A DNA stretch of 64,000 bases from Alphaproteobacteria bacterium (lineage in GTDB: Bacteria > Pseudomonadota > Alphaproteobacteria > RF32 > CAG-239): the NCBI GenBank assembly GCA_017467515.1, contig JAFUSU010000028.1, positions 128,399 through 192,398 of the forward strand, given 5' to 3'. Within the stretch, counting starts at the first letter, position 1. Every line of letters starts with the position of its first letter. The notes beneath the pieces are model-generated. The model was given only the letters and a program-made list of their open reading frames with translations. It was not told where the DNA came from and ran no database searches. The translations under genes and the position numbers were made by a program. Of the stretch, positions 2,698-28,574 are shown piece by piece.

Positions 2698-5511
2698 TTA
2701 CAGCTTATTTTTCAAATACTTACCCGTATAACTGATGGGCGATTTTGCCACTTGTTCCGGCGTGCCTTGGGCAATAATTTTACCGCCGCCGTCACCGCCT
2801 TCCGGTCCCATATCTATAATGTAATCAGCCACCTTTATAACATCAAGATTATGCTCAATCACAACCACGGTATTCCCACTGTTAACTAACGCTTGTAAAA
2901 CACTTAACAGTTTATTGATGTCTTCAAAATGTAAGCCGGTAGTCGGTTCATCAAGAATATATAATGTTTTACCTGTGGCGCGCTTAGAAAGCTCTTTTGA
3001 AAGTTTAATGCGTTGCGCTTCACCGCCGGAAAGGGTTGTTGCCTGTTGTCCGAGATGAATATAACCCAAACCGACACGTTGCAATAGCTCTAATTTGTTC
3101 TTAATGGAAGGTATGGCCGCAAAAAATTGATGCGCTTCATCTACGGTCATATCCAAGACATCGGCGATGGATTTTCCTTTGTACTTAACTTCCAGCGTTT
3201 CTCGATTAAAACGCTTGCCGTGACAGACATCACATGCCACATAAACGTCAGGCAAAAAGTTCATTTCAATCTTAGTCACACCGTCACCCTTACAAGCTTC
3301 GCAACGTCCGCCGGCAACGTTAAACGAAAATCGTCCGGCGCTGTATCCGCGCGCTTTGGCTTCCGGTAAATTGGCAAAGCAATCTCTGATATTCGAGAAC
3401 ACACCGGTATAAGTCGCCGGATTAGAACGCGGTGTTCTTCCAATCGGAGATTGGTCAATATCAATAACCTTGTCAATATTTTCCAAACCGATTAATTTAT
3501 CATATTTGCCGGTTGGTTTTCGAGAACCGTTCATTTCTTTATCAATGGCTTTGAATAAAGTTTCCAAAATAAGAGAAGACTTTCCGCCGCCGGAAACGCC
3601 GGTCACACAAGTCAATGTGCCGAGAGGAATTTTTGCATCAACATTTTTAAGATTGTTTGTGCAAGCGCCTTTAATCTCTAAAAATTTTCCTGATCCTTTT
3701 CTTCTCTTGCTTGGTACTGCAATAAATTTTTCACCGTTCAAATATTGAGCCGTCAAACTGTTTTTATCCTTTAAAACTTCTGCGACGGTTCCTTTGGCCG
3801 TTACTTCACCGCCGTTTTCTCCGGCGGCAGGACCCATATCCACCAGATAATCGGCTGCACGAATGGCATCTTCATCGTGTTCAACAACGATAACGGTGTT
3901 ACCGATATCTCGCAAATGATTCAATGTCGCCAGCAATCTGTCATTGTCACGTTGGTGCAAACCGATAGAGGGTTCGTCCAAAACATACATCACACCGGTT
4001 AAACCTGAGCCGATTTGAGAGGCAAGACGAATACGTTGTGATTCTCCGCCGGATAATGTACCGGATTGACGGGAAAGTGTGAGATAATCTAAGCCGACAT
4101 TATTCAAAAAGGTTAAACGGTCAATAATTTCTTTCAAAATTTTATGAGCAATTTCTTGCTTTTGAGGAGAAAGGCTGTCTTCAACTTGAGCAAACCATTC
4201 TTTAGCTTTAACAATAGACATTTCTGAGGCATCAATAATATCAAGCCCGTTAATTTTAACAGCCAGTGCCTCCGGCTTTAAACGCTTGCCGTGGCAAAAT
4301 TCACAAGGAGCGGCAGACTGATAACGTGCAAAATCTTCTCGAACCCAAGCGGAATCTGTTTCTAAAAAGCGACGTTCCATATTTGGAATAACACCTTCAA
4401 AAGGTTTATCTGTCATAAAGCTGGAGTAATACATCGGAACACAAACATTACCGGAACCGTAAAGAATAATATCGCGTGCTTTTTGCGGCAAATCTTTCCA
4501 AGGTGTTTTATTAGAAATACCAAGGAAGTCACAAAGAGATGTCAAAGCTTGGCTGTGAAATGAGGAATGAAAGCCTTCCCACGGGGCTATAGCGCCTTGA
4601 CTTAAGGAAAGATTTTGATTTGGAATTACCAAATTCGGATCCATATAAAGCTTAGCGCCTAAACCGTCACAATGAGGGCAGGCACCGAACGGATTGTTGA
4701 AGGAAAACAAACGAGGTTCAATTTCCTCAATCGTAAAACCGGATACCGGACAAGCAAATTTAGATGAAAAGGTAAGGCGGTGGCCGTTTTCAACTTCTTC
4801 AACATAAATAATACCGTCACTGAGTTTCAGACCTGTTTCAACGGATTGTGACAGACGTTCTATAATACCGTCTTTGACAACAATACGGTCAATGACAACT
4901 TCAATATCGTGTTTCACTGTTTTTGATAAACTCGGCAAATCCTCAAAAGTATAATTTTCCCCGTCAATCTTAAGTCGCTGAAAGCCTTGCCGTTGCAGTG
5001 TTTCAAATTCTTTTTTGAATTCGCCTTTTTTGCCTCGAGCAATCGGAGAAAGGAGTAAAAGCTTAGTTCCTGCCGGAAATTCTAAGATTCTGTCAACCAT
5101 TTGAGAAACGGTTTGTGATTCAATCGGCAGACCTGTTGCCGGAGAATAAGGTGTTCCAACCCGCGCCCACAATAAACGCATATAGTCATAAATCTCCGTT
5201 ACCGTTCCGACGGTTGAGCGAGGATTATGGGAGGTCGTTTTCTGTTCGATAGAAATCGCAGGCGATAAACCTTCAATTGAATCAACTTCAGGTTTTTTCA
5301 TTAAATCCAGAAATTGGCGCGCATAAGCCGACAAGCTTTCAACATAGCGGCGTTGTCCCTCGGCATAAATCGTATCAAAGGCAAGCGAAGACTTTCCCGA
5401 ACCGGACAATCCCGTAATGACCGTGAGTTTGTTTTTAGGAATATCAATGTTGACGTTTTTAAGGTTATGCTCTCTGGCCCCTCTGATTTCTATAAACGAG
5501 TCTTTCGTCAT
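2698..5511 (-). CDS. uvrA: Excinuclease ABC subunit A
   Basis: 937 aa; two ABC ATPase modules with Walker A ([24 protein letters not shown]), LSGGE signature motifs and zinc-finger Cys clusters; N-terminus is a typical UvrA start. Confidence 0.97.
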
Positions 5512-5589: not shown

Positions 5590-7062
5590 TTACCCTGCCG
5601 ATCTTCCGCCGCGAGAAGCTGCCAATGTTTGCGGATCGAGGGTTACTTGTTTTGCACGACGGTGACGAGGCAGTAATCTTCGAATATTAGGCTGATTACG
5701 AAACTCCAAATAAGCGCGTAAAGCTTTTCTCTTAAAGCGCCCGATAACCCGCTTTCCTTTAGCGGAATTTCCCATACCGGATAAAGCGACAATTTTTGCG
5801 TGATTGCTTAAATCGGTAGAATCCGGTGTGTTGCCGGTATTTTGCTCCGCCGGTGCGGGAGAATTGACCTCATTGTTTACCTGTTGAGTTGTGTTTTGAG
5901 GGATATTTTCCCGATGTTGGGAGTTAGTTCGTCCTGATAAGGCGTAAAGATTTAAGGCCGTTGTTGCCATTGAAGAAAGAGTGTTTCCGCCATTCTCGGT
6001 ATTGGCAGAAGAATTAGTATGAGTCGGATCGGAAAAGGAATTTTGGGAAGATTTAGCATTATCATTTTTATCAAGCGAAGGTTTCTCCATACTTGGCTTT
6101 TCCATAGCCATATTTTGCGATATAGAATTTGCATTTGTGTTTACATTTTGAGGGGAGTAACCGCTGATATTTTGATTGGTTACGCTTTTATACATATTGT
6201 TTCCCTGTCGTTGCATAGCTTGTCCTACCCGATCCATCGTTTTGGAAACAGCACTTAGAGCATTTGCCGAAAGCGTCATAGCCCCCGCTGCGGTGTAAGA
6301 GGCTAAAGCAACCGCTGCAGATGCCGTAGCGGCAGCAACACAACCGGCGGCCGCAGCATAACAAGCTGCAGCACCGACAAGAGAAAGACCTAAAGTATGG
6401 GCTGTTGCCGCAACACAAGCATTACCGGCTTGTATACAAGCATTGGCCCCTTGCATTGCAATTTTAGCGGCATTCATTGCGGCTTTCCCGACAATCCTCA
6501 GCCCCTTAGCAGCTGCTCTCATTCCCTTAACGACAGCGGATAGTGCTTTAGCACCGGTCGATATACCTTTGCCTGCATAATAAATTGTTTTTCCTAAAAT
6601 CTTTTTGCCTTGTTTAAAAGCTTTTTTAAAGCGATTCTCTTTTTTCTTATTCTTTGTTTTTTTCTTAGGTTCTTTATTGGCTTCATCGTCTGAGGAATTT
6701 TGATTTTTTGAATCTTTTATTTGATTTTCAATCCTTTTCTTTTCGGCAACGGCTTCTTCGTGTTCTTTTTGTGTTTGCTTTATTTCGTCTTGAATCTGGT
6801 CTGCTTTAGAACCGAAAATAAAATCTAAAACCCGATCAACTTTTTTGTCGAAGTCATTGGATGATGAATTTTGCTGAGCCTCGGCAACGGCATTCTTATA
6901 TTCTTTATCAAGAGAACTGAGGCGATTTTCAAAAAGTTTTACTTTTGCACGAGCTTCAACCAAATTTCGCTTTGCCTCAAAAGGCGTAGAATTATGACGG
7001 AGCCTTTTTACCGTGCCTTTAAATTTTTCTTTGAGTGAGGATTTATTATTTGTTTCTGCCAT
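5590..7062 (-). CDS. Low-complexity ORFan: N-terminal coiled coil, Ala/Gly/Cys-rich hydrophobic core, Asn/Ser/Thr-rich region, strongly basic C-terminal tail
   Basis: 490-aa ORF lying between uvrA and ssb; MEKPSMEKPS internal repeat; C-terminus RFKRKALRAYLEFRNQPNIRRLLPRHRRAKQ; no homologue recognised. Confidence 0.5.
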   Translation of the reverse strand: MAETNNKSSLKEKFKGTVKRLRHNSTPFEAKRNLVEARAKVKLFENRLSSLDKEYKNAVAEAQQNSSSNDFDKKVDRVLDFIFGSKADQIQDEIKQTQKEHEEAVAEKKRIENQIKDSKNQNSSDDEANKEPKKKTKNKKKENRFKKAFKQGKKILGKTIYYAGKGISTGAKALSAVVKGMRAAAKGLRIVGKAAMNAAKIAMQGANACIQAGNACVAATAHTLGLSLVGAAACYAAAAGCVAAATASAAVALASYTAAGAMTLSANALSAVSKTMDRVGQAMQRQGNNMYKSVTNQNISGYSPQNVNTNANSISQNMAMEKPSMEKPSLDKNDNAKSSQNSFSDPTHTNSSANTENGGNTLSSMATTALNLYALSGRTNSQHRENIPQNTTQQVNNEVNSPAPAEQNTGNTPDSTDLSNHAKIVALSGMGNSAKGKRVIGRFKRKALRAYLEFRNQPNIRRLLPRHRRAKQVTLDPQTLAASRGGRSAG

Positions 7063-7166
7063 ATTTTTTACCCGACATCTTTCTGCTCAGAAATATAAAT
7101 AGAATAGGTTAATATTTATCATATTATAGCAGAATAAGTAAAATTTGTCTATTGTTTAAAACATAA

Positions 7167-7197
7167 CAAAAAAACCGCCCTGTAACAGAGCGGTTTA
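7167..7197 (-). terminator. Rho-independent terminator downstream of ssb (minus strand)
   Basis: Hairpin aaaccgccctgtaacagagcggttt (one mismatch) with a U-run on the minus-strand reading. Confidence 0.6.
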
Positions 7198-7216
7198 AAT
7201 GTGAAAATAAATAAAA

Positions 7217-7690
7217 TTAAAAAGGAATATCGTCATCCAAATCAGCAGGTGTTGCGGCAGATGAATTATCCCAACCGGCACCTGATGCAGAAGGCGCACC
7301 GGAGAAGACGTCATTGCCGCCGGCAGGAGCACCGTCACCGCGACCATCCAATAACACCAAATTACCGTTAAAGTTTTGCAAAACAACTTCTGTTGTATAT
7401 CTTTCTTGACCGCTGTTATCTTCCCACTTGCGGGTTTGTAATTGTCCTTCAATATAAACTTTAGAGCCTTTGCGTAAATAACGCTCGGCAATATCAGCTA
7501 ACTGCGGATTAAAAATAACGACTCGGTTCCATTCCGTACGTTCTTTACGCTCGCCGGAAAGCTTATCTTTCCAACTATCGGAAGTTGCAACCGTTAAATT
7601 GACAATTTTTGTACCATTAGCCGAATTGCTGACACGCGGATCAGCACCTAAATTTCCAACTAAAATGACTTTGTTAATGCTTCCAACCAT
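7217..7690 (-). CDS. ssb: Single-stranded DNA-binding protein
   Basis: OB-fold N-terminal region ([14 protein letters not shown]...), Gly-rich linker, acidic C-terminal tip DDDIPF. Confidence 0.95.
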
Positions 7691-7863
7691 TATGTTTCCT
7701 TACACATCTAAATTAAAACTCCTATCACTATACAAATAAAAAAAACAGAGTCCAACAAGAATCGAAAAACCTGTGCATATTCACAAGAAGTGTAAAAAGA
7801 AAAATATTGACAAATATTGAAGAAAATGCATACTGAATGGCAATAAAAAATTATTAATTTATT

Positions 7864-8364
7864 ATGGAAAAGATAAAAGAACAATTTAATCCTGTCTACA
7901 ACAATGTTGAACAGGTGAAAAAAAATGCAGAATATCTGCTTGGCGAAAAAGTAACGGATGCCAAAATTGCCATCGTTATAGGTCATAACGGTCGCAATTT
8001 TGTATCCTCAACGGACTGGCGCATTACAACGGAAAGCGGAAATAAGCGGATTTTGCCGTTCTCAATTCGTCCGCAATATCCGAATTTCGTGGAATGTGTG
8101 GCAGGAATGCGTTATGATGTATATAAGGAATTATTTACGATTATTCCGGATTCCCAGAACAAAGTTTCTGTTATGTTAGAGGACAAAGTTTATTCCTTTA
8201 ACAGGGGAGAGGCTCTCAAAATATACATTGAACCCGATAGTAAGTTTATTGCGACGGATTGTCTGATTGAATATAATGAAAATAGGAATTTTTATCGTGT
8301 TCTGACAGACGAAAATACAGCTTACGGCAAGCTGGATAAAAATGGCAATATCTCGCGTCTTTAA
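7864..8364 (+). CDS. Hypothetical protein (ORFan)
   Basis: 166-aa ORF with upstream TTGACA-type promoter-like sequence and a downstream bidirectional terminator; no recognisable domain. Confidence 0.45.
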   Translation: MEKIKEQFNPVYNNVEQVKKNAEYLLGEKVTDAKIAIVIGHNGRNFVSSTDWRITTESGNKRILPFSIRPQYPNFVECVAGMRYDVYKELFTIIPDSQNKVSVMLEDKVYSFNRGEALKIYIEPDSKFIATDCLIEYNENRNFYRVLTDENTAYGKLDKNGNISRL

Positions 8365-8365
8365 T

Positions 8366-8404
8366 AAAAAAAACAGTCAGATTTTAAGATCTGACTGTTT
8401 TTTT
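8366..8404. terminator. Bidirectional rho-independent terminator
   Basis: aacagtcagat..(loop)..atctgactgtt flanked by A-run and T-run, between convergent ORFs. Confidence 0.75.
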
Positions 8405-8408
8405 ACAT

Positions 8409-8765
8409 TTAAATGCCGTCTGGAAGATTGTTCCACCATTTGCAACCGGCAGGAGGAACGGAGGTATAACCCCAGAATGTGTCATTGTCCTCAGTCGGAA
8501 CGGCGGGCATATAAATACCGATTTGATCACTGTTCGGACGTCCGTGTTTGTCAAGCCAACGACCGTTTGCAAATTTAGGAACAAATTTGCCTTCTGTGTG
8601 CATACGGCTTAAACAAGAGGCACAAACCAGAGTCTGATGCTCAAGGAACGTGTGTGATTTACGCCACAATTTGACGTGAGTTTGACCGCAAATCCGACAC
8701 TTGTATGTTTCCGGTGTTTCTCCGCTAACATACGAAAACGGCTGTTTCTTATCAACAATTTTCAT
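8409..8765 (-). CDS. Hypothetical zinc-ribbon protein
   Basis: 118 aa with CRICGQTH...CASCLSRMH (CxxC...CxxC) and Trp-rich C-terminus; no recognised family. Confidence 0.45.
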   Translation of the reverse strand: MKIVDKKQPFSYVSGETPETYKCRICGQTHVKLWRKSHTFLEHQTLVCASCLSRMHTEGKFVPKFANGRWLDKHGRPNSDQIGIYMPAVPTEDNDTFWGYTSVPPAGCKWWNNLPDGI

Positions 8766-8908
8766 AAGCTGAAGTTTTTAGAATTGTTTAAAAATAATAT
8801 GCAAAGTAAGCCTTTTATAACATAGTTTTTCCGAAAATCAAGATAAATAAAAAAAGAGCCGATGATTAGGGACATCGGCTCCTGAAGTCCTGTCGTTTTT
8901 CAGACAGG

Positions 8909-10273
8909 CTATTCGTGTGTAGAAATATTCCGAACGATCTTGTTATTTGGAGTCAGTTTTTTGTTCGGCAATAGTTTTTCCACAGACGAAATAACGCGCG
9001 TGTCACTACTTTTTTGATGTGTTACTTGAAGAGCTTTACCGTATAAGATTTTTTTAATTCCTGCCGGTAGAGTTGCTTTTTGAATTTTACGAATGGTCTT
9101 TTTTATAAAAGGAATTCCGATTTCTGCATTTTGGGCGGCTAAATCAAGCATTTTTTCAAAACAATCGGGCTCAGGGAGCAATGCAACAGCCTTTTGAGAA
9201 GTTTTTCTTGCTTTTTCCTTGAAACCGAGTGTTAACTGAATATTGGAAATTGAAAGCAAAGCCTCACTTTTTTTGATGTTTGTCGGGGCGTTGAGCGCTG
9301 CTTGGCGATAATAATACTCAGCCCAATTCAGAGCACTGATCTGTTGTGAGTTCAGTCCGGAAAAGGCAATACAGCTTTCCCCCATACTCTTTTGATACAG
9401 CTGAGCTATTTGCGTATTAAGACGATAATTATCTTCCGGAAAAATGGTATGTTGCTTTTCCAGAACTTTTTTATAAGCAAGGATAAGGTACGGAATATTT
9501 TTTTTGAAAATATTATCGTGTGCGGAAAGGCGATTCAGACAACAATCGACCATTCCCGATTCGGAAGTACTTTCCAGAACCATACGTAAACAAAAAATTT
9601 CTTTATCACAGGGTTTTGGTTCGTGGTAAATACCCGGAACAATTTGAGCACGGCGAAACAGTTCAGAAGATAAAAAGTAAATGGAAGCTTTTTGTTCATC
9701 TTCTAAATTAGGCTCATAATAACGTAATTTATTGTAAATTTTATCGGCATTTTTCATACTTACGGCAGAAGATGCCGTAGCGCTGATTGCATTTGCTGTT
9801 TCAACGGTTTCTACAAAATCTAAAGTAAGCATAATGGAGCTTATCTCTGAAAAACGAGTTTTAATATAGGGGCGCATATCCGGTTGCCCGACGCTTTTGT
9901 CACTAATGTATTGTAACTCATCCGGAGTGAAACTGGCATAGCTCTCTGCTAAATACCAACTGATTTCCGGTTTACCTTCTAATGCAAAGTTCTGCATTAA
10001 TTTAAAATTGTCAGCCAGCTTTTTTTGACAAGAAGTAATAAAGGACGCCGGAAGTTTAGCGATGTTACGTAGCAAATTACGAATATTTTCATCTGTTGCT
10101 TCGCAGTGAAAAGTCTGCTTGAATTTTTCCGCATCCATTTCTTTAAGACAATCTAAAACAACGATTCGCTCAAACTGCTCATAAGAAAGAGGCTTGGGAG
10201 CGGCTGCTTCTGCATCTGTTTTTACAGAAATATTCTGTGTTTCTAAAGAGTTATTGTTATTTTTTTGAACCAT
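8909..10273 (-). CDS. Hypothetical protein (ORFan, 454 aa)
   Basis: Long ORF with its own terminator hairpin (gagccgatg..catcggctc + T-run on minus strand at about 8850-8885); N-terminal poly-Asn; no recognised domain. Confidence 0.5.
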   Translation of the reverse strand: MVQKNNNNSLETQNISVKTDAEAAAPKPLSYEQFERIVVLDCLKEMDAEKFKQTFHCEATDENIRNLLRNIAKLPASFITSCQKKLADNFKLMQNFALEGKPEISWYLAESYASFTPDELQYISDKSVGQPDMRPYIKTRFSEISSIMLTLDFVETVETANAISATASSAVSMKNADKIYNKLRYYEPNLEDEQKASIYFLSSELFRRAQIVPGIYHEPKPCDKEIFCLRMVLESTSESGMVDCCLNRLSAHDNIFKKNIPYLILAYKKVLEKQHTIFPEDNYRLNTQIAQLYQKSMGESCIAFSGLNSQQISALNWAEYYYRQAALNAPTNIKKSEALLSISNIQLTLGFKEKARKTSQKAVALLPEPDCFEKMLDLAAQNAEIGIPFIKKTIRKIQKATLPAGIKKILYGKALQVTHQKSSDTRVISSVEKLLPNKKLTPNNKIVRNISTHE

Positions 10274-10406
10274 TTTGGACTCATAAAACGTGTTTTGACT
10301 AATTTTGTCGTTATTGTATAAGTTTAAAAATTTTTGTCAATAAGTATCTTGGCCAAAACAAAAAAACCGCTGTCAGAATAACAGCGGCACAGTGAAAAAT
10401 AAAATT

Positions 10407-10916
10407 TTATTCAGACTGCGGACCGCAACGGGTTGCAAACTCCAAATCGTGAATAAAATCCTCAATTTCCTGCTCATGTTCCACTTCTTCCTTTAATAAT
10501 TTTTCAGCTAAGCGAAAAGTAACATAATCGGTTGTATGGCAGATTTCACATAGTTGCTGATAATGGCTGACAGCGCATCGTTCGGCTGTCAGGTTTTGCT
10601 CCAAAATTTTATAGATACAGGGATCGCTGGGGGCTTCATAACGACACTTTGCTATATGGCTCCATTCATCGGGAGATAAAACAGGTGTTCCGCCTAGTTC
10701 AATAATGCGATTCGCCAACCAACCGGCGTGTTTGAGTTCTTCATTCGCGTGCTCCAAAAATTCAGCCGTGATATCCGGTCGCATCGGTCCGGCAGCCACT
10801 TGAGCGCCTATCCAATACTGGTAATAGGCTAACCATTCTTCGGCATAGGCCTGATTTAATAAATCTATAATTTTATTGAGATGATCTTTAACAATATATT
10901 GTGCTGTTTGCGCCAT
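10407..10916 (-). CDS. Ferritin-like diiron protein (bacterioferritin-related)
   Basis: Matches bacterioferritin pattern LNK(L/I)(L/I)..E..A..QY ... E.LEHANEELKHAGWLANRIIELGGTP (compare E. coli Bfr [26 protein letters not shown]). Confidence 0.6.
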   Translation of the reverse strand: MAQTAQYIVKDHLNKIIDLLNQAYAEEWLAYYQYWIGAQVAAGPMRPDITAEFLEHANEELKHAGWLANRIIELGGTPVLSPDEWSHIAKCRYEAPSDPCIYKILEQNLTAERCAVSHYQQLCEICHTTDYVTFRLAEKLLKEEVEHEQEIEDFIHDLEFATRCGPQSE

Positions 10917-11019
10917 AATTACTCCTCCTTATTGGTTAAAATCAGAAAAGAAGTAATCATTTTTAAGGGAATATCAATAATTGGTGTGTTATATTTCTGC
11001 TAAAACAAGGGAGAAAAAA

Positions 11020-11655
11020 ATGGTCCAAATAGCACCCAGCATCTTATCGGCAGATTTTTCAAAATTGAGGGAAGAAATTATTGCACTGGAACACGCCGGC
11101 GCAGATTTGATTCACATTGATGTTATGGACGGACATTTTGTGCCGAACCTGACATTCGGTCCGCAGATTGTTAAATCAGTTCGAGAATGTACGAAATTAC
11201 CGTTAGATGTTCATTTAATGGTTGATAATCCGGATGATATGTTAGAATGGTTTGCCTATGCCGGCGCTGATATTATTACCGTTCATACGGAAACATGCGC
11301 GCACTTGGATAAAACAATTGAGCAAATTCATTCTTTGGGGGCAAAAGCGGGCGTATCTCTTAATCCGGCAACATCTGAAAAAGTGTTGGAATATGTTTTA
11401 AACAAACTTGATTTAGTGCTGGTTATGAGTGTTAATCCGGGTTTTGGCGGTCAGGCATTTCAATCAGAGCAGCTCAAAAAAATTAATATGTTGAAGGAAA
11501 TGCGAAAAGCTTTGCCTTATTTGATTGAAGTAGACGGCGGAATTAATCCGATGACAGCTTCTGAATGTACGGCAGCCGGAGCTGATATTTTGGTTGCCGG
11601 AACATCAGTATTTTCGGGCGGTGACTATAAAAATAATATTCAGGCATTAAGATAA
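11020..11655 (+). CDS. rpe: Ribulose-phosphate 3-epimerase
   Basis: MVQIAPSILSADF...HIDVMDGHFVPN...GGINP motifs typical of Rpe; the ATG at 11020 is preceded by an aagggag SD (the ORF-track start at 10981 is probably too early). Confidence 0.9.
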   Translation: MVQIAPSILSADFSKLREEIIALEHAGADLIHIDVMDGHFVPNLTFGPQIVKSVRECTKLPLDVHLMVDNPDDMLEWFAYAGADIITVHTETCAHLDKTIEQIHSLGAKAGVSLNPATSEKVLEYVLNKLDLVLVMSVNPGFGGQAFQSEQLKKINMLKEMRKALPYLIEVDGGINPMTASECTAAGADILVAGTSVFSGGDYKNNIQALR

Positions 11656-21838: not shown

Positions 21839-22126
21839 ATGTTTAAAATTACATTGAATGACATCAGAGATGGTATAAATCTGATGGATACTAAAGGAAG
21901 ACATCGGGAAATAAGAAATATTCCTGATGGAGAGCTGCTACGGCGCCGTTTTGAAACATTGCATTTTAACAAATGGCAAGCTGTCAATATAGTTAATCGT
22001 GTATGCGAACAGCAAAATTTGACGGTGCCTAGAGAAATTGTAGAGGTGATGCCGGATGATACTGTTTCGTCATTCTTAAGCACAGTCAATCAGTACATTG
22101 AAGAATATGAAAAGTTACAATATTGA
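21839..22126 (+). CDS. Small hypothetical protein
   Basis: 95-aa ORF followed by a hairpin + T-run (22144-22178). Confidence 0.35.
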   Translation: MFKITLNDIRDGINLMDTKGRHREIRNIPDGELLRRRFETLHFNKWQAVNIVNRVCEQQNLTVPREIVEVMPDDTVSSFLSTVNQYIEEYEKLQY

Positions 22127-22228
22127 TGGTGCCGGTAATTAAAAACACGGAGAAGATAAACTTCCCCGTGTTTTTTTATATGTATGAGCAAAGAAAAAAA
22201 TATTTCCGATGATGAGGTCAAAGTGCAT

Positions 22229-22954
22229 TTATATATTTTCATTGATGATATGTTGAACTTCTTTCATTGTGGCACAAACGGCAATAACGCCGGCGCTAAC
22301 GCATTTTTGCCGATATTCAGGTGTATCATTTCCTTCTGCACCGACAAAAGCGATACTTTTCATTCCGGCAGCATTCGCCGCCTTAAAATCGTTCAAACTA
22401 TCGCCAATTACAATACAATCTTTTGGCTTAAAACCTTTTGTTGTTGCTGCCAGCAAAAATATATCAGGCGCCGGTTTGCCTTGTCTTACCATATCTACCG
22501 TAAAATAGTCATTCGGTGACATATATTTTTCAATCCATTTAAATTGCGTCATTTTCCAAGCATGTTGTTCCTTAGTGGCTCCGGTTGCAATACAATGTGT
22601 AAAACGAGCATCGCTCATAGTATCTTCAACATTGGCGATAGGTTGCATAAAGTGCATGCCTTTATATTTTTCTCCGGCATCAATTTTTTGCATAAAGCAA
22701 TCATCTAAGACAAGATGCGGAAAATGCTTTTCAAGATTTATTTTTTTTTCTCTATCAGCAATTCCGACAAGCAATTTGAAAGTTTCTTCTTTGGTCAGAG
22801 AAATATTTTTTTCTTTTTGCAGTGTTTCAAGCCAAACGGAAATCCACAGTTTTTCGCTATCGGCAATAACGCCGTCAAAGTCCCAGATAATTAATTTTTT
22901 AGCTTTACTGATTGTCACCGTATACCTCCGTATTTCAAATGATGCAGCAAGCAT
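22229..22954 (-). CDS. HAD-superfamily hydrolase (beta-phosphoglucomutase/phosphatase-like)
   Basis: Motif I (I)WDFDGVIADSE, motif III K at GxxxKP region, motif IV GDSLND. Confidence 0.8.
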   Translation of the reverse strand: MLAASFEIRRYTVTISKAKKLIIWDFDGVIADSEKLWISVWLETLQKEKNISLTKEETFKLLVGIADREKKINLEKHFPHLVLDDCFMQKIDAGEKYKGMHFMQPIANVEDTMSDARFTHCIATGATKEQHAWKMTQFKWIEKYMSPNDYFTVDMVRQGKPAPDIFLLAATTKGFKPKDCIVIGDSLNDFKAANAAGMKSIAFVGAEGNDTPEYRQKCVSAGVIAVCATMKEVQHIINENI

Positions 22955-23065
22955 AATGCTAATTTGTTAAAATATAATTTAATGCAATGAGATCTTTTTA
23001 TCTGTTCGGGGTAAAATTAGAACGCTTACGACGAGCTGAATGTCGCCATCTCCGCAAATTTGTTA

Positions 23066-23203
23066 AATGGTGCGCTTTTGCTTTGCGATTATGTGCGCGC
23101 GTTACACATTGCGCACCGCAAGCGACCGGCTCCGCCGTCTATCTTGCGCCGAACATTTCCGGCGCTACGATTCCGGACAGAAAATTACGATGAATATAGG
23201 CAG
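23066..23203 (+). repeat. Repeat B copy 3 (att-like aatggtgc + GC-rich segment + cggacagaaaattacgatgaatatagg leader motif)
   Basis: Shares aatggtgcgc...gtgcgcgcgtt.cacac..gcgca and ..cggac(t/a)a.a.tt(t/a)(t/c)gatgaatatagg with copies at 24362 and 26034. Confidence 0.6.
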
Positions 23204-23722
23204 TTAGGAGATAAATTGACGACGGTTTTTGTAAATCTGTATAAATGTCCATATACATAATACGATACAAGCTACAGCCGAAGGATATGCTTGCACATAA
23301 AAATTATGAATAAACCATAAAAGCAGATTAGAAACCAAAGCCCAACGCATTTGCTGTTCGTTTTTTGTTGTATACATAAAAATAGTATAACTGGCAGAGG
23401 CAATAATGGGAAATAGGCCGATAATACCGAGATTATTAACATAAAGCCCGATAGCCACGTTTATAATTAGCAGAATATAGGTAATATTTTTAGTTAGTTT
23501 GCCTTTATAAGATAAAATATTACGAATAAGGCAAACCACACTGATAACAATTGCCGCATAAGCCGAAAGCACAATGCATGTTGCAATTCCGAAAAGTGGA
23601 TCTCCGATTTGCCAATACATAAAATCTTTTTTATTTTTCTTGATAACCGAAATGGCAAGGCAAATTGCAGATAATAAGGAAAAAATATTTCCGATGATTA
23701 AATATGTTGGCATTTGTTTCAA
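23204..23722 (-). CDS. Small polytopic inner-membrane protein (possibly YgjV-like)
   Basis: 172 aa, about five hydrophobic helices; overlaps the downstream gene by 4 nt. Confidence 0.5.
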   Translation of the reverse strand: MKQMPTYLIIGNIFSLLSAICLAISVIKKNKKDFMYWQIGDPLFGIATCIVLSAYAAIVISVVCLIRNILSYKGKLTKNITYILLIINVAIGLYVNNLGIIGLFPIIASASYTIFMYTTKNEQQMRWALVSNLLLWFIHNFYVQAYPSAVACIVLCIWTFIQIYKNRRQFIS

Positions 23723-24081
23723 ATCTCATTTACATCAAGCAAAGGAATTATATTTATAACAGGTTCTTCATAAGGGTGAATTTCTTTTATAGCTGAAATT
23801 GTTTTGTTTAATTTTTCTTTTAAGCATATAACTTCTACTTTCATTTCCGGCTCTTGACTTATTTTATCGCGTTTGCCTATATATGGTTTTGAACCATCCA
23901 GAGGCCGCCATGTCCCGATAACTTCACTATATGATAAACAAGAATCATAATTACCGATATGTCCGGCATCAACTTTTTGCAAAGTTGCTTGTAGTTGTTT
24001 CAAATGCGTTTTCGGAATAAAAATTTCTAATTTATATTTTTCCATATTTTGTTCCTTTTCCGGATCATTATAAATTAGCAC
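23719..24081 (-). CDS. Small CutA/PII-like-fold protein (uncertain family)
   Basis: C-terminal IHPYEEPVINIIPL resembles the CutA HPYEVPEIIALPI motif; 120 aa. Confidence 0.35.
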   Translation of the reverse strand: MLIYNDPEKEQNMEKYKLEIFIPKTHLKQLQATLQKVDAGHIGNYDSCLSYSEVIGTWRPLDGSKPYIGKRDKISQEPEMKVEVICLKEKLNKTISAIKEIHPYEEPVINIIPLLDVNEI

Positions 24082-24106
24082 AAAAGAAAATCAATTAGTT
24101 TTTCAA

Positions 24107-24210
24107 AAAAGTCCGATAATTTAGGCGATATTGCGGTTTTCGAGAACGAGACAATCGGACTTTGTGAGAAGCAATAATAGCAACAAAAAACCCACCTTTT
24201 AGGCTGGAGG
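24107..24210 (+). repeat. Repeat A copy 1 (aaaagtccgataattt...cggactttgtgagaagcaataata.caacaaaaaacccacctttt)
   Basis: About 85% identical over ~100 bp to copy 3 (26630), which abuts the tRNA-Thr 3' end. Confidence 0.7.
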
Positions 24211-24361
24211 CAAAAAATTGCTCTTTGATGAGCAATTTTTAACGACAGGCGAAGTTTTATTATTGAGCTAGCGAGAGCAATCGAAGCGCAGCGAAATTAG
24301 AAAACGAGTGACCGAAACGAGTTAGCGAATGATAATGAGCTTACGAGTAAGAGGCTTTGTC

Positions 24362-24430
24362 AAAAATGGTGCACGTTACTGTGCGCGTATCGGACTAATT
24401 TTTATGATGAATACAAGCAACTGGAGTATA
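24362..24430 (+). repeat. Repeat B copy 1 (leader upstream of the HExxH ORF)
   Basis: aaaatggtgcacgttactgtgcgcgtatcggactaatttttatgatgaatacaagcaactgga vs copy 2 ttaatggtgcgcgatactatacgagtatcggactaatttttatgatgaatataggaagctgaa. Confidence 0.7.
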
Positions 24431-24490
24431 GATTGCAATTTCTTGACAGGATTTAATACAAATGCTATTATTACCATTAAGAGGTGTGTT

Positions 24491-25465
24491 ATGATTTTCA
24501 GAAAACCAGACCATTCAGAAACACAAGAAGATGCGCAAATTACTGAAATTATTAAATCAGCAAAATATTTTGCACAAAAAATAGCTCCGGATAATTGGAA
24601 AGAAAACGTTGAAAAGATATATAATGAGTTAACAGTCGTCCTGTGCGATGGAAACAGAACTTTTAAAGCTCTTCAAGATGGAAAACTTAAAGACATCAAA
24701 TTTTCAGCTGCGGCAGTTAAGTTTTGGGAAAATATTGATACTAACGAATATACGACATCTCAAGGAATTGCTATATTACCAAAGGCAAGTCCACATGTCA
24801 TAACACACGAATCATTGCACGCCTTTTCTTCTGATGCAGGCAAAACTGATGATGGTGGCGGATATATAAAAGTAGGTTCAAAATATGCCGAATTTGATAG
24901 AGAAGGGAGTATTGTTAAAAGAACAAATGATGACTTAAATGAAACTATAACCGATGCCTTAACAAGCAGAGCGTTAGGTCGTATAGGACCGAATGCTGGA
25001 GCAAGCTACGCTTCGCAAGTTATAATGGCAGATTTATTAATGGGTGAAAAACTTGAAGATAATGCTTTTATTCAGGATGTTTATTTCGGTAAAAGTGAAA
25101 AATTTGCCGAAGATTTTGATAAAACAATAAAAGCATCTAAAGTCAAATTTGCAGATTATTTACAAGGCTTTAAAATCTTAGGCTCTGAAGAAGATAATAA
25201 AAAATCAGATAAATTGCTTAAAGGTGCAGTAGAATATAATTTGCGTAAAGCCAAGACAGCCGAAGAAATTGACCATATTTATGCTTTTCAACAAAAAATT
25301 ATCAATTTTTATAAAGATGGTGGAATTACGACTAATTTTATGGAAGATGAAGATATTTCACGAATGGAAAATTTATTGAAATTTGCTGATAAAATGCAAA
25401 AACAATGCAAGTCTAATCTAGTTGCACAACAAATGATAGAGAAACAATTTGTAAACGAAGATTAA
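24491..25465 (+). CDS. Hypothetical HExxH-motif protein (putative gluzincin-like zinc metalloprotease; candidate effector/toxin)
   Basis: ITHESLHAF (HExxH) followed ~39 aa later by DLNETITDAL (candidate third-ligand Glu in an NE context); the start at 24491 (MIFRKPDH) has an aagaggtg SD, and the longer ORF-track start at 24329 runs through repeat B so is probably not translated. Confidence 0.55.
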   Translation: MIFRKPDHSETQEDAQITEIIKSAKYFAQKIAPDNWKENVEKIYNELTVVLCDGNRTFKALQDGKLKDIKFSAAAVKFWENIDTNEYTTSQGIAILPKASPHVITHESLHAFSSDAGKTDDGGGYIKVGSKYAEFDREGSIVKRTNDDLNETITDALTSRALGRIGPNAGASYASQVIMADLLMGEKLEDNAFIQDVYFGKSEKFAEDFDKTIKASKVKFADYLQGFKILGSEEDNKKSDKLLKGAVEYNLRKAKTAEEIDHIYAFQQKIINFYKDGGITTNFMEDEDISRMENLLKFADKMQKQCKSNLVAQQMIEKQFVNED

Positions 25466-25527
25466 GGCTGATTTTATTGGACTGGGATTTTATTTATCAA
25501 ACGGCTTGATTTATTACCTTTTACGAC

Positions 25528-25647
25528 AAAAGTCCGATAATTTATGAAAAATTGACATTTTCGTGAATGACGAAATCTGACTTTGCGAGAATCAACCCCA
25601 CAAAAGCAAAAACCGCCTGCATTGAGGCGGTTTTATAAAATGGTGCC
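25528..25647 (+). repeat. Repeat A copy 2 (divergent; ends with terminator-like hairpin aaaaccgcctgc..gaggcggtttt and aatggtgcc)
   Basis: Shares aaagtccgataatttatgaaaaattg...ttttcg...gactttg with copies 1 and 3. Confidence 0.6.
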
Positions 25648-25732
25648 TCTGAAGTCGAATGACAATTCGCAAAAAAGTTTGCTCATTGTCGGCTTCATCC
25701 GCCTCGCACTTAAAAGGCTCGGCGACTTCAGC

Positions 25733-26044
25733 TCCGGACTTACGGATTGCTCACGCAATCATATCGTAAGTCCTTTTTTATCTCCGATACGCATTAACAA
25801 AAATCCCACCTCTAGGGTGGGATTTTTGTTAATGGTGCCGCTGATAAGAAGGTGCGCGCGTTTCACACGGCGCATCTTTCGCTTACGCTCAAGACCTCGG
25901 ACGCTTTGCGCCTCGTCCTCCGCGGTTTGAAAATATCCAAACCGCTACGTCGGACTTAACAATGCCCCCGTAAGTCCTTTCCCTATCCCCGATACGCATT
26001 AACAAAAATCCCACCTCTAGGGTGGGATTTTTGTTAATGGTGCG
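25733..26044 (+). repeat. Two tandem GC-rich tRNA-derived units (cggactta..cgtaagtcc..ccgatacgcattaacaaaaatcccacctctagggtgggatttttgttaatggtgc) separated by a GC-rich spacer
   Basis: Unit 1 25733-25848 and unit 2 25951-26044; each contains a copy of the tRNA T-arm (cgtaagtcc), an 8-bp-stem terminator hairpin and the tRNA 3' end (ggtgccgctgataaga in unit 1). Confidence 0.7.
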
Positions 26045-26095
26045 CGATACTATACGAGTATCGGACTAATTTTTATGATGAATATAGGAAGCTGA
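26034..26095 (+). repeat. Repeat B copy 2 (leader upstream of the 150-aa ORF)
   Basis: See copy 1. Confidence 0.7.
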
Positions 26096-26169
26096 AAGAT
26101 AAGATTGAATCATTTTGAAATAATTGACAAAAGAAGGAATACAATATACAATAAATTATTATCTAATAT

Positions 26170-26622
26170 ATGGAGGAAAATCCCATGGTAGTATTTATTA
26201 AAGAAGAAACACTTAAATCTTCAAAAGAAAATGCTCTTCCTGAAACAGATTTACTGAAGCGCTGTACTAAAATGAAAGCATCACAAAATGGAAAAAAAGT
26301 AGAACTGCTAACCAACAATGATGAATTACTTGGAACACTAAATAGAGAAGATGATGCTCATTGTAATTTAGATATTACAAATGGTCATAGCTTGATGGGG
26401 AGGTATATTACCACTAGTGCAGATAAGAAACCCTCTTGGACTATTTATGAGTATAATGAAGCAAAAACGTCAAAAGTGAAAATCATTGATGAGGAACGCG
26501 CTAGAAGATTAAAAGGTCTTTTTAACGATATACGTAATGCGGCAGAGCGTTCATTAAAGTTAGGAAAAGATAGTGTATCTTTTAGAAATAGAAACTTATT
26601 AGATAATAGTCGTAAGATGTGA
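26170..26622 (+). CDS. Hypothetical protein (cargo ORF, 150 aa)
   Basis: ORF preceded by ggagg SD (aatatatggaggaaaatcccatg) and repeat B, followed by repeat A; no recognisable domain. Confidence 0.45.
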   Translation: MEENPMVVFIKEETLKSSKENALPETDLLKRCTKMKASQNGKKVELLTNNDELLGTLNREDDAHCNLDITNGHSLMGRYITTSADKKPSWTIYEYNEAKTSKVKIIDEERARRLKGLFNDIRNAAERSLKLGKDSVSFRNRNLLDNSRKM

Positions 26623-26629
26623 AAAATAA

Positions 26630-26746
26630 AAAAGTCCGATAATTTGTGAAAAATTGCTGTTTTCGGGAACGGATTTATCGGACTTTGTGAGAAGCAATAA
26701 TAACAACAAAAAACCCACCTTTTCGGTGGGCTTTTTGTTAATGGTG
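26630..26746 (+). repeat. Repeat A copy 3 (native tRNA-Thr downstream region with terminator hairpin cccaccttttcggtggg)
   Basis: Abuts and overlaps the tRNA-Thr 3' end. Confidence 0.7.
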
Positions 26747-26814
26747 CCGCTGATAAGAATCGGACTTACGACCCCGTCATTACCAATGACGTGCTCTACC
26801 ACTGAGCTACAACG
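26740..26814 (-). tRNA. tRNA-Thr (anticodon GGU)
   Basis: Reverse complement reads GCCGTTG-TA-GCTC-AGTGGTA-GAGC-A-CGTCA-TTGGTAA-TGACG-GGGTC-GTAAG-TCCGATT-CTTAT-CAGCGGC-A-CCA; clover-leaf with 7-bp acceptor (one G-U), anticodon loop uuGGUaa, encoded CCA. Confidence 0.85.
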
Positions 26815-26855
26815 GCACTTAATAATAAATTTTATTGTCTGTTTTACCTCTGTGC

Positions 26856-27010
26856 CCCGCCCGTCATTACCAATGACGTTCCTTCGGCATCTAAGCTCAA
26901 TGCGGTCGCTTCCGCTTCCCTGTTTCGCTAAGATGTTCCGAAGAACTTGCAGACAAAAATGACATACAGATGTCATTTTTACTTAGCGTTACCACTGAGT
27001 TACAATGGTA
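26856..27010 (-). pseudogene. Scrambled pseudo-tRNA-Thr fragments (5' acceptor/D-arm copy at 26987-27010 and anticodon-arm copy at 26856-26880 separated by ~105 bp of unrelated DNA containing a 10-bp palindromic hairpin)
   Basis: gttaccactgagttacaatggtac vs real ctaccactgagctacaacggcac; cccgtcattaccaatgacgt identical to the real anticodon arm. Confidence 0.6.
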
Positions 27011-27135
27011 CTTCACAAACAACTTTTGCACCATACCCAAGACTTATCAAAAAATCAAGCATAAAATATAAATTCCTCACTTTTTTTTAAGAGATTGTTG
27101 TTAAAATTCTATCAAAATAAAACAGAGGAGTGAGT

Positions 27136-27285
27136 GATGATAGAAAAAATTCCAAGCCAACGGTGTCGAGAGCGCATAATACGGGAAGGTAAAGCCTTAC
27201 AAAAAAATTTAGAAAAAAGAAAAAAACAAATTGCCGCTCGTGAAAAGTTAAAAAAACAAAAAGAACAGGAGCAAAAAAATGGATA
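27136..27285 (+). CDS. Candidate small basic coiled-coil protein (49 aa) overlapping the murA start
   Basis: aggagtgagtgATG SD; translation MIEKIPSQRCRERIIREGKALQKNLEKRKKQIAAREKLKKQKEQEQKNG*; the stop overlaps murA codons 2-3. Not in the ORF track (below its size cut-off). Confidence 0.35.
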
Positions 27286-28574
27286 AAATTAAGATTATCG
27301 GCGGACATCAGCTTAATGGCAAAATTTATATCAGTGGAGCTAAAAATGCCGCCTTGCCGCTCATCTGTGCCGGTTTGTTAACACCGGATACCGTTACTTT
27401 AACCAATATGCCGATTCTTTCGGATATAAAATCACTTAATACATTATTGACATTATTAGGAACACAAATTGACGAGTTTGATGACTTTTTAGATGGTCAC
27501 CCGACAAAGACTTATTCTTATCGCACCCTTGAGGCCACAAGTCTGATAGCTCCTTATGATTATGTACGGAAAATGAGAGCATCATATTATGTTTTGGGAC
27601 CATTGTTGGCGCGCTACGGACACGTTGAACTCTCTCTCCCGGGCGGATGCGCAATCGGTGCGCGTCCGATGGATATTCATTTGGCTGCTTTAGAGCAAAT
27701 GGGCGCTAAAATTGAAATTAAAAACGGCTATGTTTTTGCTGATGTTGAGAACCGTCTTAAGGGGGCAAACATTATCTTTAAAATTGCTTCTGTCGGGGCA
27801 ACGTGTAATATTTTAATGGCCGCTACGTTGGCAGAGGGAATAACCCGTATTGAAAACGCCGCTAAAGAGCCGGAAATTGGAGACTTGATAGATTTGCTCA
27901 ATGATATGGGCGCAAAAATAAGCGGTAAAAATACTTCCATTCTGACAGTTGAAGGTGTTGAATCTTTGCACGGAGCAACGCATAAAGTTATTACCGATCG
28001 TATAGAGGCTGGTTCATACGCTGTTGCCGCTGCAATTACCAGAGGATGTATCGAATTAATTAATGCTCAGGCTTCAACCCTGCAATGCCCGATTAATATT
28101 TTACGTCAAATGGGCGTTGATGTAAAGGAAACACCAAATTCTCTTATTGTTGATGCTCGTGGCAAAACTTTAGTCGGTCAAGATATTATGACAGACTTTT
28201 ACCCCGGTTTTCCGACAGATTTACAAGCTCAATTTTTGGCTCTCATGCTGACGGCAGAGGGAGCTTCTTTAGTAACGGAAACGATTTTTGAAAATCGTTT
28301 TATGCACGTACCGGAACTTTTGCGCATGGGCGCGAATATTAATGTCCATGGGCATGCTTCGGCAATTGTTCGCCATGTCGATAAACTTTATGGTGCGCCG
28401 GTAATGGCAACGGATTTGAGAGCCTCGTTTGCGTTGATATTGGCAGGCTTGATTGCAGAAGGAGAAACAATTGTCAATCGTGTTTATCACCTTTATCGAG
28501 GTTATGAAAAATTGGCAGAAAAATTAGCCGGTGTCGGCGCTCAAATAGAAGTCATTCATGAAAGTGATGAATAA
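27279..28574 (+). CDS. murA: UDP-N-acetylglucosamine 1-carboxyvinyltransferase
   Basis: MDKIKIIGG..L.G...ISGAKNAALP, catalytic-Cys region LPGGCAIGARP(M/V)D, full-length 431 aa. Confidence 0.95.
   Translation: MDKIKIIGGHQLNGKIYISGAKNAALPLICAGLLTPDTVTLTNMPILSDIKSLNTLLTLLGTQIDEFDDFLDGHPTKTYSYRTLEATSLIAPYDYVRKMRASYYVLGPLLARYGHVELSLPGGCAIGARPMDIHLAALEQMGAKIEIKNGYVFADVENRLKGANIIFKIASVGATCNILMAATLAEGITRIENAAKEPEIGDLIDLLNDMGAKISGKNTSILTVEGVESLHGATHKVITDRIEAGSYAVAAAITRGCIELINAQASTLQCPINILRQMGVDVKETPNSLIVDARGKTLVGQDIMTDFYPGFPTDLQAQFLALMLTAEGASLVTETIFENRFMHVPELLRMGANINVHGHASAIVRHVDKLYGAPVMATDLRASFALILAGLIAEGETIVNRVYHLYRGYEKLAEKLAGVGAQIEVIHESDE

Follow-up and report, generated by a model that had tools for sequence, protein, structure and literature searches.

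In the staphylococcal cassette chromosome (SCCmec), inserted at rlmH (orfX) by CcrAB, and in the Enterococcus cassette chromosome, a conserved gene receives cassettes at its 3' end through the action of large serine recombinases (LSRs), and pseudo-cassettes (psiSCC) devoid of recombinase and bounded by site repeats pile up in tandem. SCC targets a protein-coding gene, and its recombinase gene, located inside the element, is left undivided by the attachment site attP. The array analysed here is located beside a tRNA-Thr(GGU) gene, in a stretch of 64,000 nucleotides (hereafter the window) of the contig JAFUSU010000028.1 from an Alphaproteobacteria bacterium; compared to SCC and psiSCC, its cassettes are far smaller, each with a promoter of its own. 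The streptococcal cis-mobilisable elements (CIMEs), known from the accretion of integrative and conjugative or mobilisable elements, are bounded by attL and attR, have lost the recombination and transfer genes, and are found in tandem with an autonomous element or at its site. They depend on tyrosine integrases and long att repeats, and their mobilisation was shown experimentally, whereas the movement of the cassettes is proposed here from sequence comparisons. The phage Mx8 of Myxococcus carries attP within the 3' end of intP, its target overlaps the 3' end of a tRNA gene and its integration alters the C-terminus of the integrase. Mx8 Int is a phage tyrosine recombinase, whereas the enzyme found at our locus is a serine recombinase of small islands. 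Integron arrays likewise consist of small accessory-gene units stacked at one site, but they involve the tyrosine recombinase IntI, attI and attC sites, promoterless cassettes and single-strand recombination, none of which was found here.

The closest system is represented by the ssrA islands of Dehalococcoides, which are tandem islands at a tRNA-like 3' end with a serine recombinase at the target edge. A short repeat of the transfer-messenger RNA (tmRNA) 3' end borders each island, and a serine recombinase of 540 amino acids and a small one are located at the target-proximal edge. The integration module is missing from about half of the islands, for which cis-mobilisation was proposed (PMC3146451). 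At our locus the target is tRNA-Thr(GGU) instead of tmRNA, the shared core is of 8 nt instead of a 20-bp repeat, the units are of 0.7-3 kb with one or two genes instead of islands of ~10-20 kb, and the hosts are rumen and gut Alphaproteobacteria. Moreover, attP is included here in the open reading frame (ORF) of the recombinase and the remnants of the gene ends form two repeats, named A and B. Prophages with a serine recombinase in tRNA genes are rare but have been reported (PMC6536676). The literature searched yielded no direct precedent for an LSR that carries attP within its own gene and uses a tRNA-Thr, which is not a proof of absence.

We propose that the locus is, probably, a tandem array of LSR-island remnants stripped of their recombinase and inserted at the CCA end of tRNA-Thr(GGU). 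A stack of repeats without integrase can thereby be decoded, the repeats being the two halves of a recombinase gene cut by its own attP.

Repeats on the 3' side of tRNA-Thr(GGU)

The sole tRNA gene of the window, tRNA-Thr(GGT) with the anticodon GGU, is intact and located on the minus strand at 26742-26816. A first reading made from the sequence alone (the sequence-only reading) had recognised this intact gene and its strand, and its position, given as 26740-26814, is corrected here. The repeats described in that reading are all on the 3' side of the tRNA. Repeat A (99 nt) is present at 24105, 25526 and 26628 with a mutual identity of 68-86%. The copies of repeat B at 24365 and 26036 share 82% identity over 66 nt, and in the third copy (B1, at 23066) the conserved end at 23174-23214 is preceded by a GC-rich insert of ~95 nt placed after the AATGGTGC motif. 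The three copies of A and the three copies of B are recovered as announced, and AATGGTGC recurs as six cores. A unit of 60 nt composed of a hairpin and AATGGTGC is found at 25779-25838, 25984-26043 and 26688-26747, and the tRNA 3' end has an exact copy of 22 nt at 25829-25850. For the motif AATGGTGC, 2.2 occurrences would be expected in the window and 7 were observed, 6 of them between 23066 and 26747, within 3.7 kb. No further copy of the A core or of the B core was detected anywhere in the 64-kb window.

The recombinase and its attachment sites

The sequence-only reading noted that no integrase is present in the window, which holds true, but an integrase is encoded at the very same site in sister strains. 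In the locus L002, an island that adjoins the tRNA encodes an LSR of 520 amino acids (7720-9282) with the domains Resolvase PF00239, Recombinase PF07508 and Zn_ribbon_recom PF13408, together with two small resolvases and glycan genes. The C-terminus of this LSR is ..INKWCR and the stop codon is included in the tRNA 3' end. A second LSR, 83% identical to the first and with the same three domains (PF00239, PF07508, PF13408), is encoded at 10001-11563 of the locus L021, where it abuts an identical tRNA. The resolvase, recombinase and zinc-ribbon domains that characterise LSRs, placed at the edge of the element, are therefore encountered in sister strains and species, and the window contains remnants only. 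Small ORFs of 61-62 amino acids precede the LSR in L002 and L020, and the one of 61 amino acids is a candidate recombination directionality factor for excision.

Concerning L021, this locus corresponds to the contig k141_47869, from the same sample as L003, and displays a U unit (see below) and an LSR island beside an identical tRNA-Thr(GGT). Its chromosomal context differs, with Dus, TrkA and BipA downstream instead of murA, and it evidently comes from another species of the sample. The cargo of this island includes an ankyrin-repeat protein of 887 amino acids and a DNA methylase.

With the recombinase as query, 561 relatives were found. The long forms carry an uninterrupted B-type tail, namely P0002 (..INKWCAILCAYRTDFYDEYKQLGYKLELLSEQDD.., ending with ..TAEINKWCAILCAYRTDFYDEYKQLGYKLELLSEQDDVCQNDEFPMLSLQNTKI), P0005-7, P0024 and P0029. 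In the integrated forms, the protein either terminates at KWCR or KWCH or extends into the reverse complement of other tRNAs. The family appears, from these C-termini, to target the ..GCACCA ends of several tRNAs, and it would thus be aimed at the universal CCA end of tRNAs. Read-through of other tRNA reverse complements is observed in the relatives P0012, P0016, P0027 and P0038 (..KWCRWQESDLRPRHYQ, ..GCALPLSYGG).

In L020, which encodes P0002, the LSR, AAGTGGTGC and the B tail are contiguous. This locus matches the right end of L002 (79% nucleotide identity) and then the left end of L016 and L018 (88% nucleotide identity). Judging from these matches, L020 represents the attP configuration, and the attL and attR hybrids rebuild contiguous attP and attB. 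The predicted attP, in a segment of about 60 bp, spans ..GGCTGAAATCAACAAATGGTGCGCGATACTATGCGAGTATCGGACT.., and the predicted attB is composed of hairpin-TTGTTAATGGTGCCGCTGATAAGAATCGGACTTACG (hairpin-AATGGTGCC-tRNA); the 8-nt AATGGTGC is the only sequence common to all the B junctions and the tRNA. On the right half-sites, the motif ATCGGACT is found 16 nt after TGGTGC in B and 11 nt after TGGTGC in the tRNA. An inward shift of 5 bp between attB and attP half-sites has been described for the motifs of the zinc-ribbon domain (PMC3783163). The spacing of ATCGGACT fits this geometry on the right half-sites and is suggestive only, because by inspection no convincing motif was recognised on the left half-sites of attP or attB. 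The attP, attB, attL and attR sequences are given directly by these comparisons and would be useful for mining programmable serine integrases.

Repeat B and the C-terminal tail of the recombinase

The B copies were translated in the frame of the L002 recombinase (AAA TGG TGC). B1-B3 and the B of L016 encode WC(A/T)(I/L)L.(x)YRTNFYDEY(K/R)xL.., the peptides being WCTLLCAYRTNFYDEYKQLEYRLQFLDRI followed by a stop codon in B2, WCAILYEYRTNFYDEYRKLKDKIESF followed by a stop codon in B3, WCAILCEYRTNFYDEYKLLGYKLELMSEQDD.. in L016 and, after the insert, ..RTENYDEYRQLGDKL in B1. The codon of the Leu located after the K/R-x positions varies synonymously among the copies (CTG, CTG, TTG, TTA). The GC-rich insert of B1 is homologous to the bodies of the E units (see below) in L030 and in E2. 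Since L020 has the LSR and the B tail in one piece, in the attP form, B corresponds to the P' arm and to a detached LSR tail. From this coding evidence, we interpret B as the detached C-terminal coding tail of the LSR gene, that is to say the P' arm of attP and an attL scar. The role of leader or promoter attributed to B in the sequence-only reading is replaced by this displaced coding tail, and the promoter-like sites of the region with the best scores (11/12 matches) are inside the cassettes 2 and 3, downstream of B (24443-24471 and 26124-26152).

Repeat A and the 3' end of the recombinase gene

Two loci of other species display intermediates between the LSR gene and repeat A. In L022, the place of A is occupied by a sequence encoding IIDITVNIGKFLQSPVLSLKKEFLRLILSDFL and a stop codon, with 88% amino acid identity to the residues 465-490 of the LSR. 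In L028, the core and a B come after an intact LSR 3' end of ~140 nt (65% amino acid identity, residues 472-519). The alignment of A1-A3 with the ends of LSR genes reveals the codons AAA AGT CCG ATA ATT (KSPII) and TTA TCG GAC TTT (LSDF), and the hairpin is aligned with the codons of KPF..TA (AGCCGTTCG..CGAACGGCT). With respect to intact LSR genes, a deletion of 20 nt is common to A1-A3 and to the L022 remnant, and the left boundary of A (AAAAGTCCG) is identical in A1-A3 and in the copies of other species. When the LSR ends were compared by blastn with the window, the copies of A and B were the only matches at an E-value of 1e-4 or better. The alignments indicate that A and the hairpin are most likely the decayed P arm, a remnant of the ~45 codons at the end of an LSR gene, in which the hairpin doubles as the terminator of the tRNA. 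The sequence-only reading had described A as a gene tail, a description replaced here by the decayed end of the recombinase gene. Its view of the repeats as attL/attR scars left by recurrent site-specific insertions at the 3' end of the tRNA is supported, A and B being homologous to the two sides of attP.

A symmetry of the DNA was also observed in A. A perfect inverted repeat of 12 bp with a gap of 36 nt, built on the 8-mer AGTCCGAT and its complement ATCGGACT, is present both in A and inside intact LSR genes (A3 26633-26684, A1 24110-24161, L021 about 11412-11470), beyond what is required by the codons of KSPII and LSDF. The AGTCCGAT/ATCGGACT motif is also present in the T-loop region of the tRNA and in B, and its spacing in the inverted repeat is attP-like.

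Proposed formation of the modules

In the mechanism that we propose, attP would lie inside the last codons of the LSR gene (..K-W-C, AAA TGG TGC), which are the reverse complement of the tRNA end GCACCA, so that integration would split this gene. The body and most of the 3' end would stay beside the tRNA (attR), the ORF stopping early inside the tRNA, and the last 25-45 codons would be carried to the far end of the island (attL) as repeat B. Deletion of the remaining LSR gene would leave its last ~45 codons as repeat A and the hairpin, the latter now acting as terminator of the tRNA. A module, composed of core, B, promoter, one or two cargo genes, A, hairpin and core, would be a stripped island that keeps both att arms, and new elements would enter at the tRNA-proximal junction, pushing the older modules outward. 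The stripped cassettes, we infer, are still moved as units, by an LSR acting in trans or together with a neighbouring island.

Organisation of the array

The features of the window are the following (positions, strand, description).

23066-23214, plus: B1, left end of module 1; core AATGGTGC and remnant of the LSR C-terminal tail (..RTENYDEYRQLGDKL), with a GC-rich insert at ~23093-23169
23204-24081, minus: cargo of module 1; ygjV-like membrane protein at 23204-23722 (PF10688) and cutA1-like gene at 23719-24081 (PF03091)
24105-24203, plus: A1, decayed LSR gene 3' end (P arm), with the inverted repeat AAAGTCCGATAA...ATCGGACTTT
24204-24364, no strand: purine-rich spacer of 160 nt between A1 and B2, with a reading frame open into the KWC codons of the next core
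24365-24430, plus: B2, left end of cassette 2; core and LSR tail remnant (WCTLLCAYRTNFYDEYKQLEYRLQFLDRI, stop)
24443-25465, plus: cargo of cassette 2; promoter-like site at 24443-24471 and orphan ORF at 24491-25465 (324 amino acids, HESLH motif)
25526-25638, plus: A2 (decayed LSR 3' end) with its terminator hairpin at 25609-25634, forming the right end of cassette 2
25639-25830, no strand: E3, non-coding; AATGGTGCC, GC-rich body, inverted pair CCGGACTTACG..CGTAAGTCC and hairpin
25831-26035, no strand: E2, non-coding; exact copy of the tRNA 3' end at its start, GC-rich body and hairpin
26036-26101, plus: B3, left end of cassette 3; core and LSR tail remnant (WCAILYEYRTNFYDEYRKLKDKIESF, stop)
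26124-26622, plus: cargo of cassette 3; promoter-like site at 26124-26152 and orphan ORF at 26185-26622 (145 amino acids)
26628-26741, plus: A3 (decayed LSR 3' end) with its bidirectional terminator hairpin at 26704-26740, forming the right end of cassette 3
26742-26816, minus: tRNA-Thr(GGU), whose CCA end GCACCA (TGGTGC on the plus strand) is the recombination core
26817-27012, minus: U unit; degenerate copy of the tRNA 5' part, terminator-like hairpin, GC-rich segment, 20-nt copy of the anticodon arm and likely tRNA promoter

The assignments of A and B to LSR gene ends in this list are the interpretations given above. The junction formed by A3-hairpin and the tRNA end is the present attB-like junction. 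The 22-nt match to the tRNA at 25829-25850, at the start of E2, overlaps the preceding unit E3 by 2 nt. The hairpin of A1 is truncated and this repeat is not directly followed by a core. The sequence-only reading placed A always directly 3' of a gene and B always 5' of an orphan ORF; A1 is in fact upstream of the minus-strand cutA1-like gene and B1 abuts the 3' end of the minus-strand ygjV, so that the terms leader and tail fail for module 1. The junction between B and ygjV is kept in L022. The spacer 24204-24364 contains the hairpin AAAAATTGCTC..GAGCAATTTTT, and its similarity to LSR genes is not detectable.

Polymorphism among strains

Many metagenome contigs encode MurA and the cargo proteins of the window, and their flanks agree with those of the window at 99.9-100% identity. 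In L001, cassette 3 (B3, ORF145, A3 and hairpin; 704 bp) is present in an exact tandem duplication, the junction of which is located at the core (..ttgttaatggtgc|gcgatac..) with 13-16 nt of identity. A contig of 762 nt has a terminal overlap of 58 nt and represents this 704-bp unit as a repeat or as a circle. In L002, L016 and L018, an LSR island is found in place of cassette 3; in the last two, the hairpin and core are followed by a B repeat leading into different genes, L018 being from the same sample as L002. E2 is not present in L016. In L011, an island with a P4-type tyrosine integrase of 387 amino acids is inserted in the anticodon loop of the same tRNA. As the locus differs among strains, the region beside tRNA-Thr is a genuine and polymorphic integration hotspot. 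The cassette polymorphism expected of the stacked islets or gene-capture array postulated in the sequence-only reading is thus present among related strains, as a duplication, an LSR island and a tyrosine-integrase island, and the modules are indeed bounded by B and A-hairpin.

The island of L011 extends from 3033-4435 onward, with the crossover in the anticodon loop (..GACCCC|ttcattaccaatt|..). Its integrase gene is preceded by repeated tgtagcacc motifs, and genes for an Ank-repeat, a DUF3768 and a DUF1737 protein come next. Repeated motifs of this kind (tgtagcacc, gacgtgtagg) are also located next to the tRNA in L024, L025, L027, L029 and L036.

Arrays in other species

When one genome per species was scanned with the tRNA 3' end, 19 metagenome-assembled genomes of uncultured rumen or gut alphaproteobacteria with an identical tRNA were recovered. 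Arrays with the same grammar (core-B..cargo..A-hairpin-core) are located beside this tRNA in at least 8 other species, represented by L022, L023, L026, L028, L030, L031, L037 and L040. Their units are of 0.7-2.9 kb and their cargo comprises GNAT acetyltransferases, a beta-lactamase-like protein, Fic, GIY-YIG, a SulP transporter and orphans. Cassette 3 of the window is 96.7% identical over 748 nt to a cassette of L022, where it has a different rank in the array, although the flanking genes share just 60-78% identity. L030 and L031 have a further cassette in common, with 95.8% identity. Different species of uncultured Alphaproteobacteria from rumen and gut thus share small accessory-gene cassettes. 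These near-identical cassettes, the left boundary at which A recurrently begins and the common 20-nt deletion favour cassettes moving as units. The modules B..A-hairpin contain no recombinase and the same junction holds an LSR island in L002, L016 and L018, which is the combination by which CIMEs and psiSCC are recognised.

Origin of the repeats and mobility of the cassettes

Several observations weigh against the derivation of the array from LSR islands. The E-values of the LSR ends against the window in blastn are just 3e-5 to 1e-2 with L002 and L021 and 3e-6 with L020, and tblastn of the LSR against the window gave nothing significant at A. The homology between A and the LSR gene is carried by a nucleotide alignment and by the intermediates of other species, and the window itself contains neither an LSR gene nor a piece of one exceeding ~115 nt. 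In the cassettes, the 25 nt to the left of the core (hairpin-TTTTTGTTAA) are clearly unlike the functional P arm (..GGCTGAAATCAACAA), which makes a present-day activity of attR type doubtful. The duplication of L001 and the 762-nt contig can be read equally as unequal crossing-over, and no excision, circles or mobilisation in trans were observed. Finally, an LSR crossover does not explain the E units, the longer copies of the tRNA 3' end, the U unit or the GC-rich patches. As excision was not observed and the cassette arms differ near the core, decay in place with homologous exchange is a serious rival. The modules would then be immobile fossils of full LSR islands, shared or duplicated by homologous recombination or unequal crossing-over at the tRNA, the hairpins or the E flanks. 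This possibility, to which we give clearly less than an even chance, agrees with the absence of recombinase in the window, with the right arms of the cassettes, with the 13-16 nt of identity at the L001 junction and with the near-identical 60-nt hairpin repeats at 25779 and 25984, the absence of E2 from L016 resembling a recombination event between these two. The left boundary of A (AAAAGTCCG) shared across copies and species and the 20-nt deletion shared by A1-A3 and L022 are unexpected under independent decay, and cassette 3 is found at different array ranks in two species with different neighbours. At the other extreme, the miniature single-gene cassettes could be a self-standing class mobilised in trans by LSR islands, for which the palindrome of A (two ATCGGACT with an attP-like spacing), E and U would be functional accessory or landing sites; we hold this for a rather unlikely extension. 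If true, it would represent a serine-recombinase counterpart of the exchange of integron cassettes, anchored at the CCA end of tRNA-Thr.

Explanations that do not involve an LSR fare less well. Islands with P4-like tyrosine integrases are the usual users of tRNA genes, and one of them is present in the anticodon loop of the same tRNA in L011. Furthermore, E carries direct repeats of 12-19 nt of the tRNA 3' end and U duplicates the tRNA 5' part, features more typical of a tyrosine-recombinase crossover within the tRNA. As a source of the scars such islands are nevertheless improbable, and for the A/B modules they are already refuted by the homology to the LSR: the boundaries of these modules share the 8-nt core AATGGTGC only and match the LSR attP halves. 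The L011 junction, moreover, is elsewhere, in the anticodon loop. Integron-like capture was one suggestion of the sequence-only reading. A dedicated integrase capturing promoterless cassettes through attC-like sites (A) at an attI beside the tRNA could explain one-gene units stacked with an imperfect palindrome on the 3' side of each. We give it hardly any credit: in the window-like contigs, the 10 kb on each side of the array contain no called gene with a Phage_integrase domain, neither IntI nor attC is found, A is homologous to LSR coding sequence, the cassettes have strong promoter-like sites of their own and the recombinase at the site is a large serine recombinase. It is just as implausible that A and B are generic dispersed repeats, of the repetitive extragenic palindrome (REP) or miniature inverted-repeat transposable element (MITE) kind, clustering here by chance. 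A is indeed intergenic with a 12-bp terminal inverted repeat, but the rest of the 64-kb window is devoid of copies, the repeats are seen in 19 other species only in the stretch adjoining tRNA-Thr and always in the order core-B..A-hairpin-core, and the LSR coding sequence explains both A and B.

The units E and U

Twelve copies of the E unit, of 172-217 bp, were found in 9 loci. Each is composed of the core and 12-19 nt of the tRNA 3' end, a variable GC-rich segment of 80-100 nt, the T arm in inverted copy (CCGGACTTACG-loop-CGTAAGTCCG) and a terminator hairpin. With the next core, an E unit forms a large palindrome centred on the hairpin, and its GC-rich body is hypervariable. In every copy whose left flank was assessed (all but E2 of the window), E is located between A-hairpin and B or the tRNA; E2 follows the hairpin of E3. 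The positions, in re-oriented copies of the loci other than the window, are the following.

Window: 25639-26035
L022: 7728
L023: 534, 1747 and 2897
L026: 1667 and 3316
L030: 1736
L031: 4663
L037: 4488
L039: 6893 and 7724

A structured RNA was considered for the E units and rejected, RNAalifold giving, from 11 sequences, 13 pairs of which 0 had a compensatory change. The GC-rich patches pointed out in the sequence-only reading are real (57% GC at 23077-23183 and 62% at 25850-25930, for a mean of 37.7%), and GC peaks of comparable kind are also found inside ordinary genes elsewhere in the window. No known RNA family matches these patches: Rfam with permissive thresholds over 22000-28000 has detected only the tRNA and weak terminator-driven matches (P9, NrrF). 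A tmRNA or permuted tmRNA was also considered for the patches ended by GCACCA, and none was found by ARAGORN.

The U unit, of ~190 bp, is located upstream of tRNA-Thr and was overlooked in the sequence-only reading, whose list of repeats lacked the copy of the tRNA 5' part at 26817-27012. It is found in the window (26817-27012, minus strand), in L001 (9346-9733), in L021 (11627-11823), in L033 and in L040, and its copy number varies across loci from 0 to 2 or more in tandem (1 in the window, 2 in L001 and L002). It contains a copy of the tRNA 5' part (degenerate in the window), a terminator-like hairpin, an exact copy of 20 nt of the anticodon arm and a probable tRNA promoter, and its GC-rich segment displays UUCG- and GNRA-like loops. 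In species without U, the chromosomal flank directly abuts the tRNA, so U seems to supply a new tRNA 5' half and a new promoter. A tRNA intron was also considered for the ~105-nt U insert and rejected, the downstream part having no T arm and no acceptor strand. No parent element was found for E or U, which may be relics of tyrosine-integrase elements crossing over inside the tRNA.

Cargo proteins with an HExxH motif

The cargo ORFs of cassettes 2 and 3 have no match in Pfam. An HExxH motif is present in two cassette proteins that look unrelated, the one encoded at 24491-25465 in the window (HESLH) and the one encoded at 6380-7578 in the re-oriented copy of L022 (HELGH), and Pfam gave nothing for either of them. 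The N-terminus of the L022 protein resembles a signal peptide, and both proteins may, from these motifs, be secreted metalloproteases.

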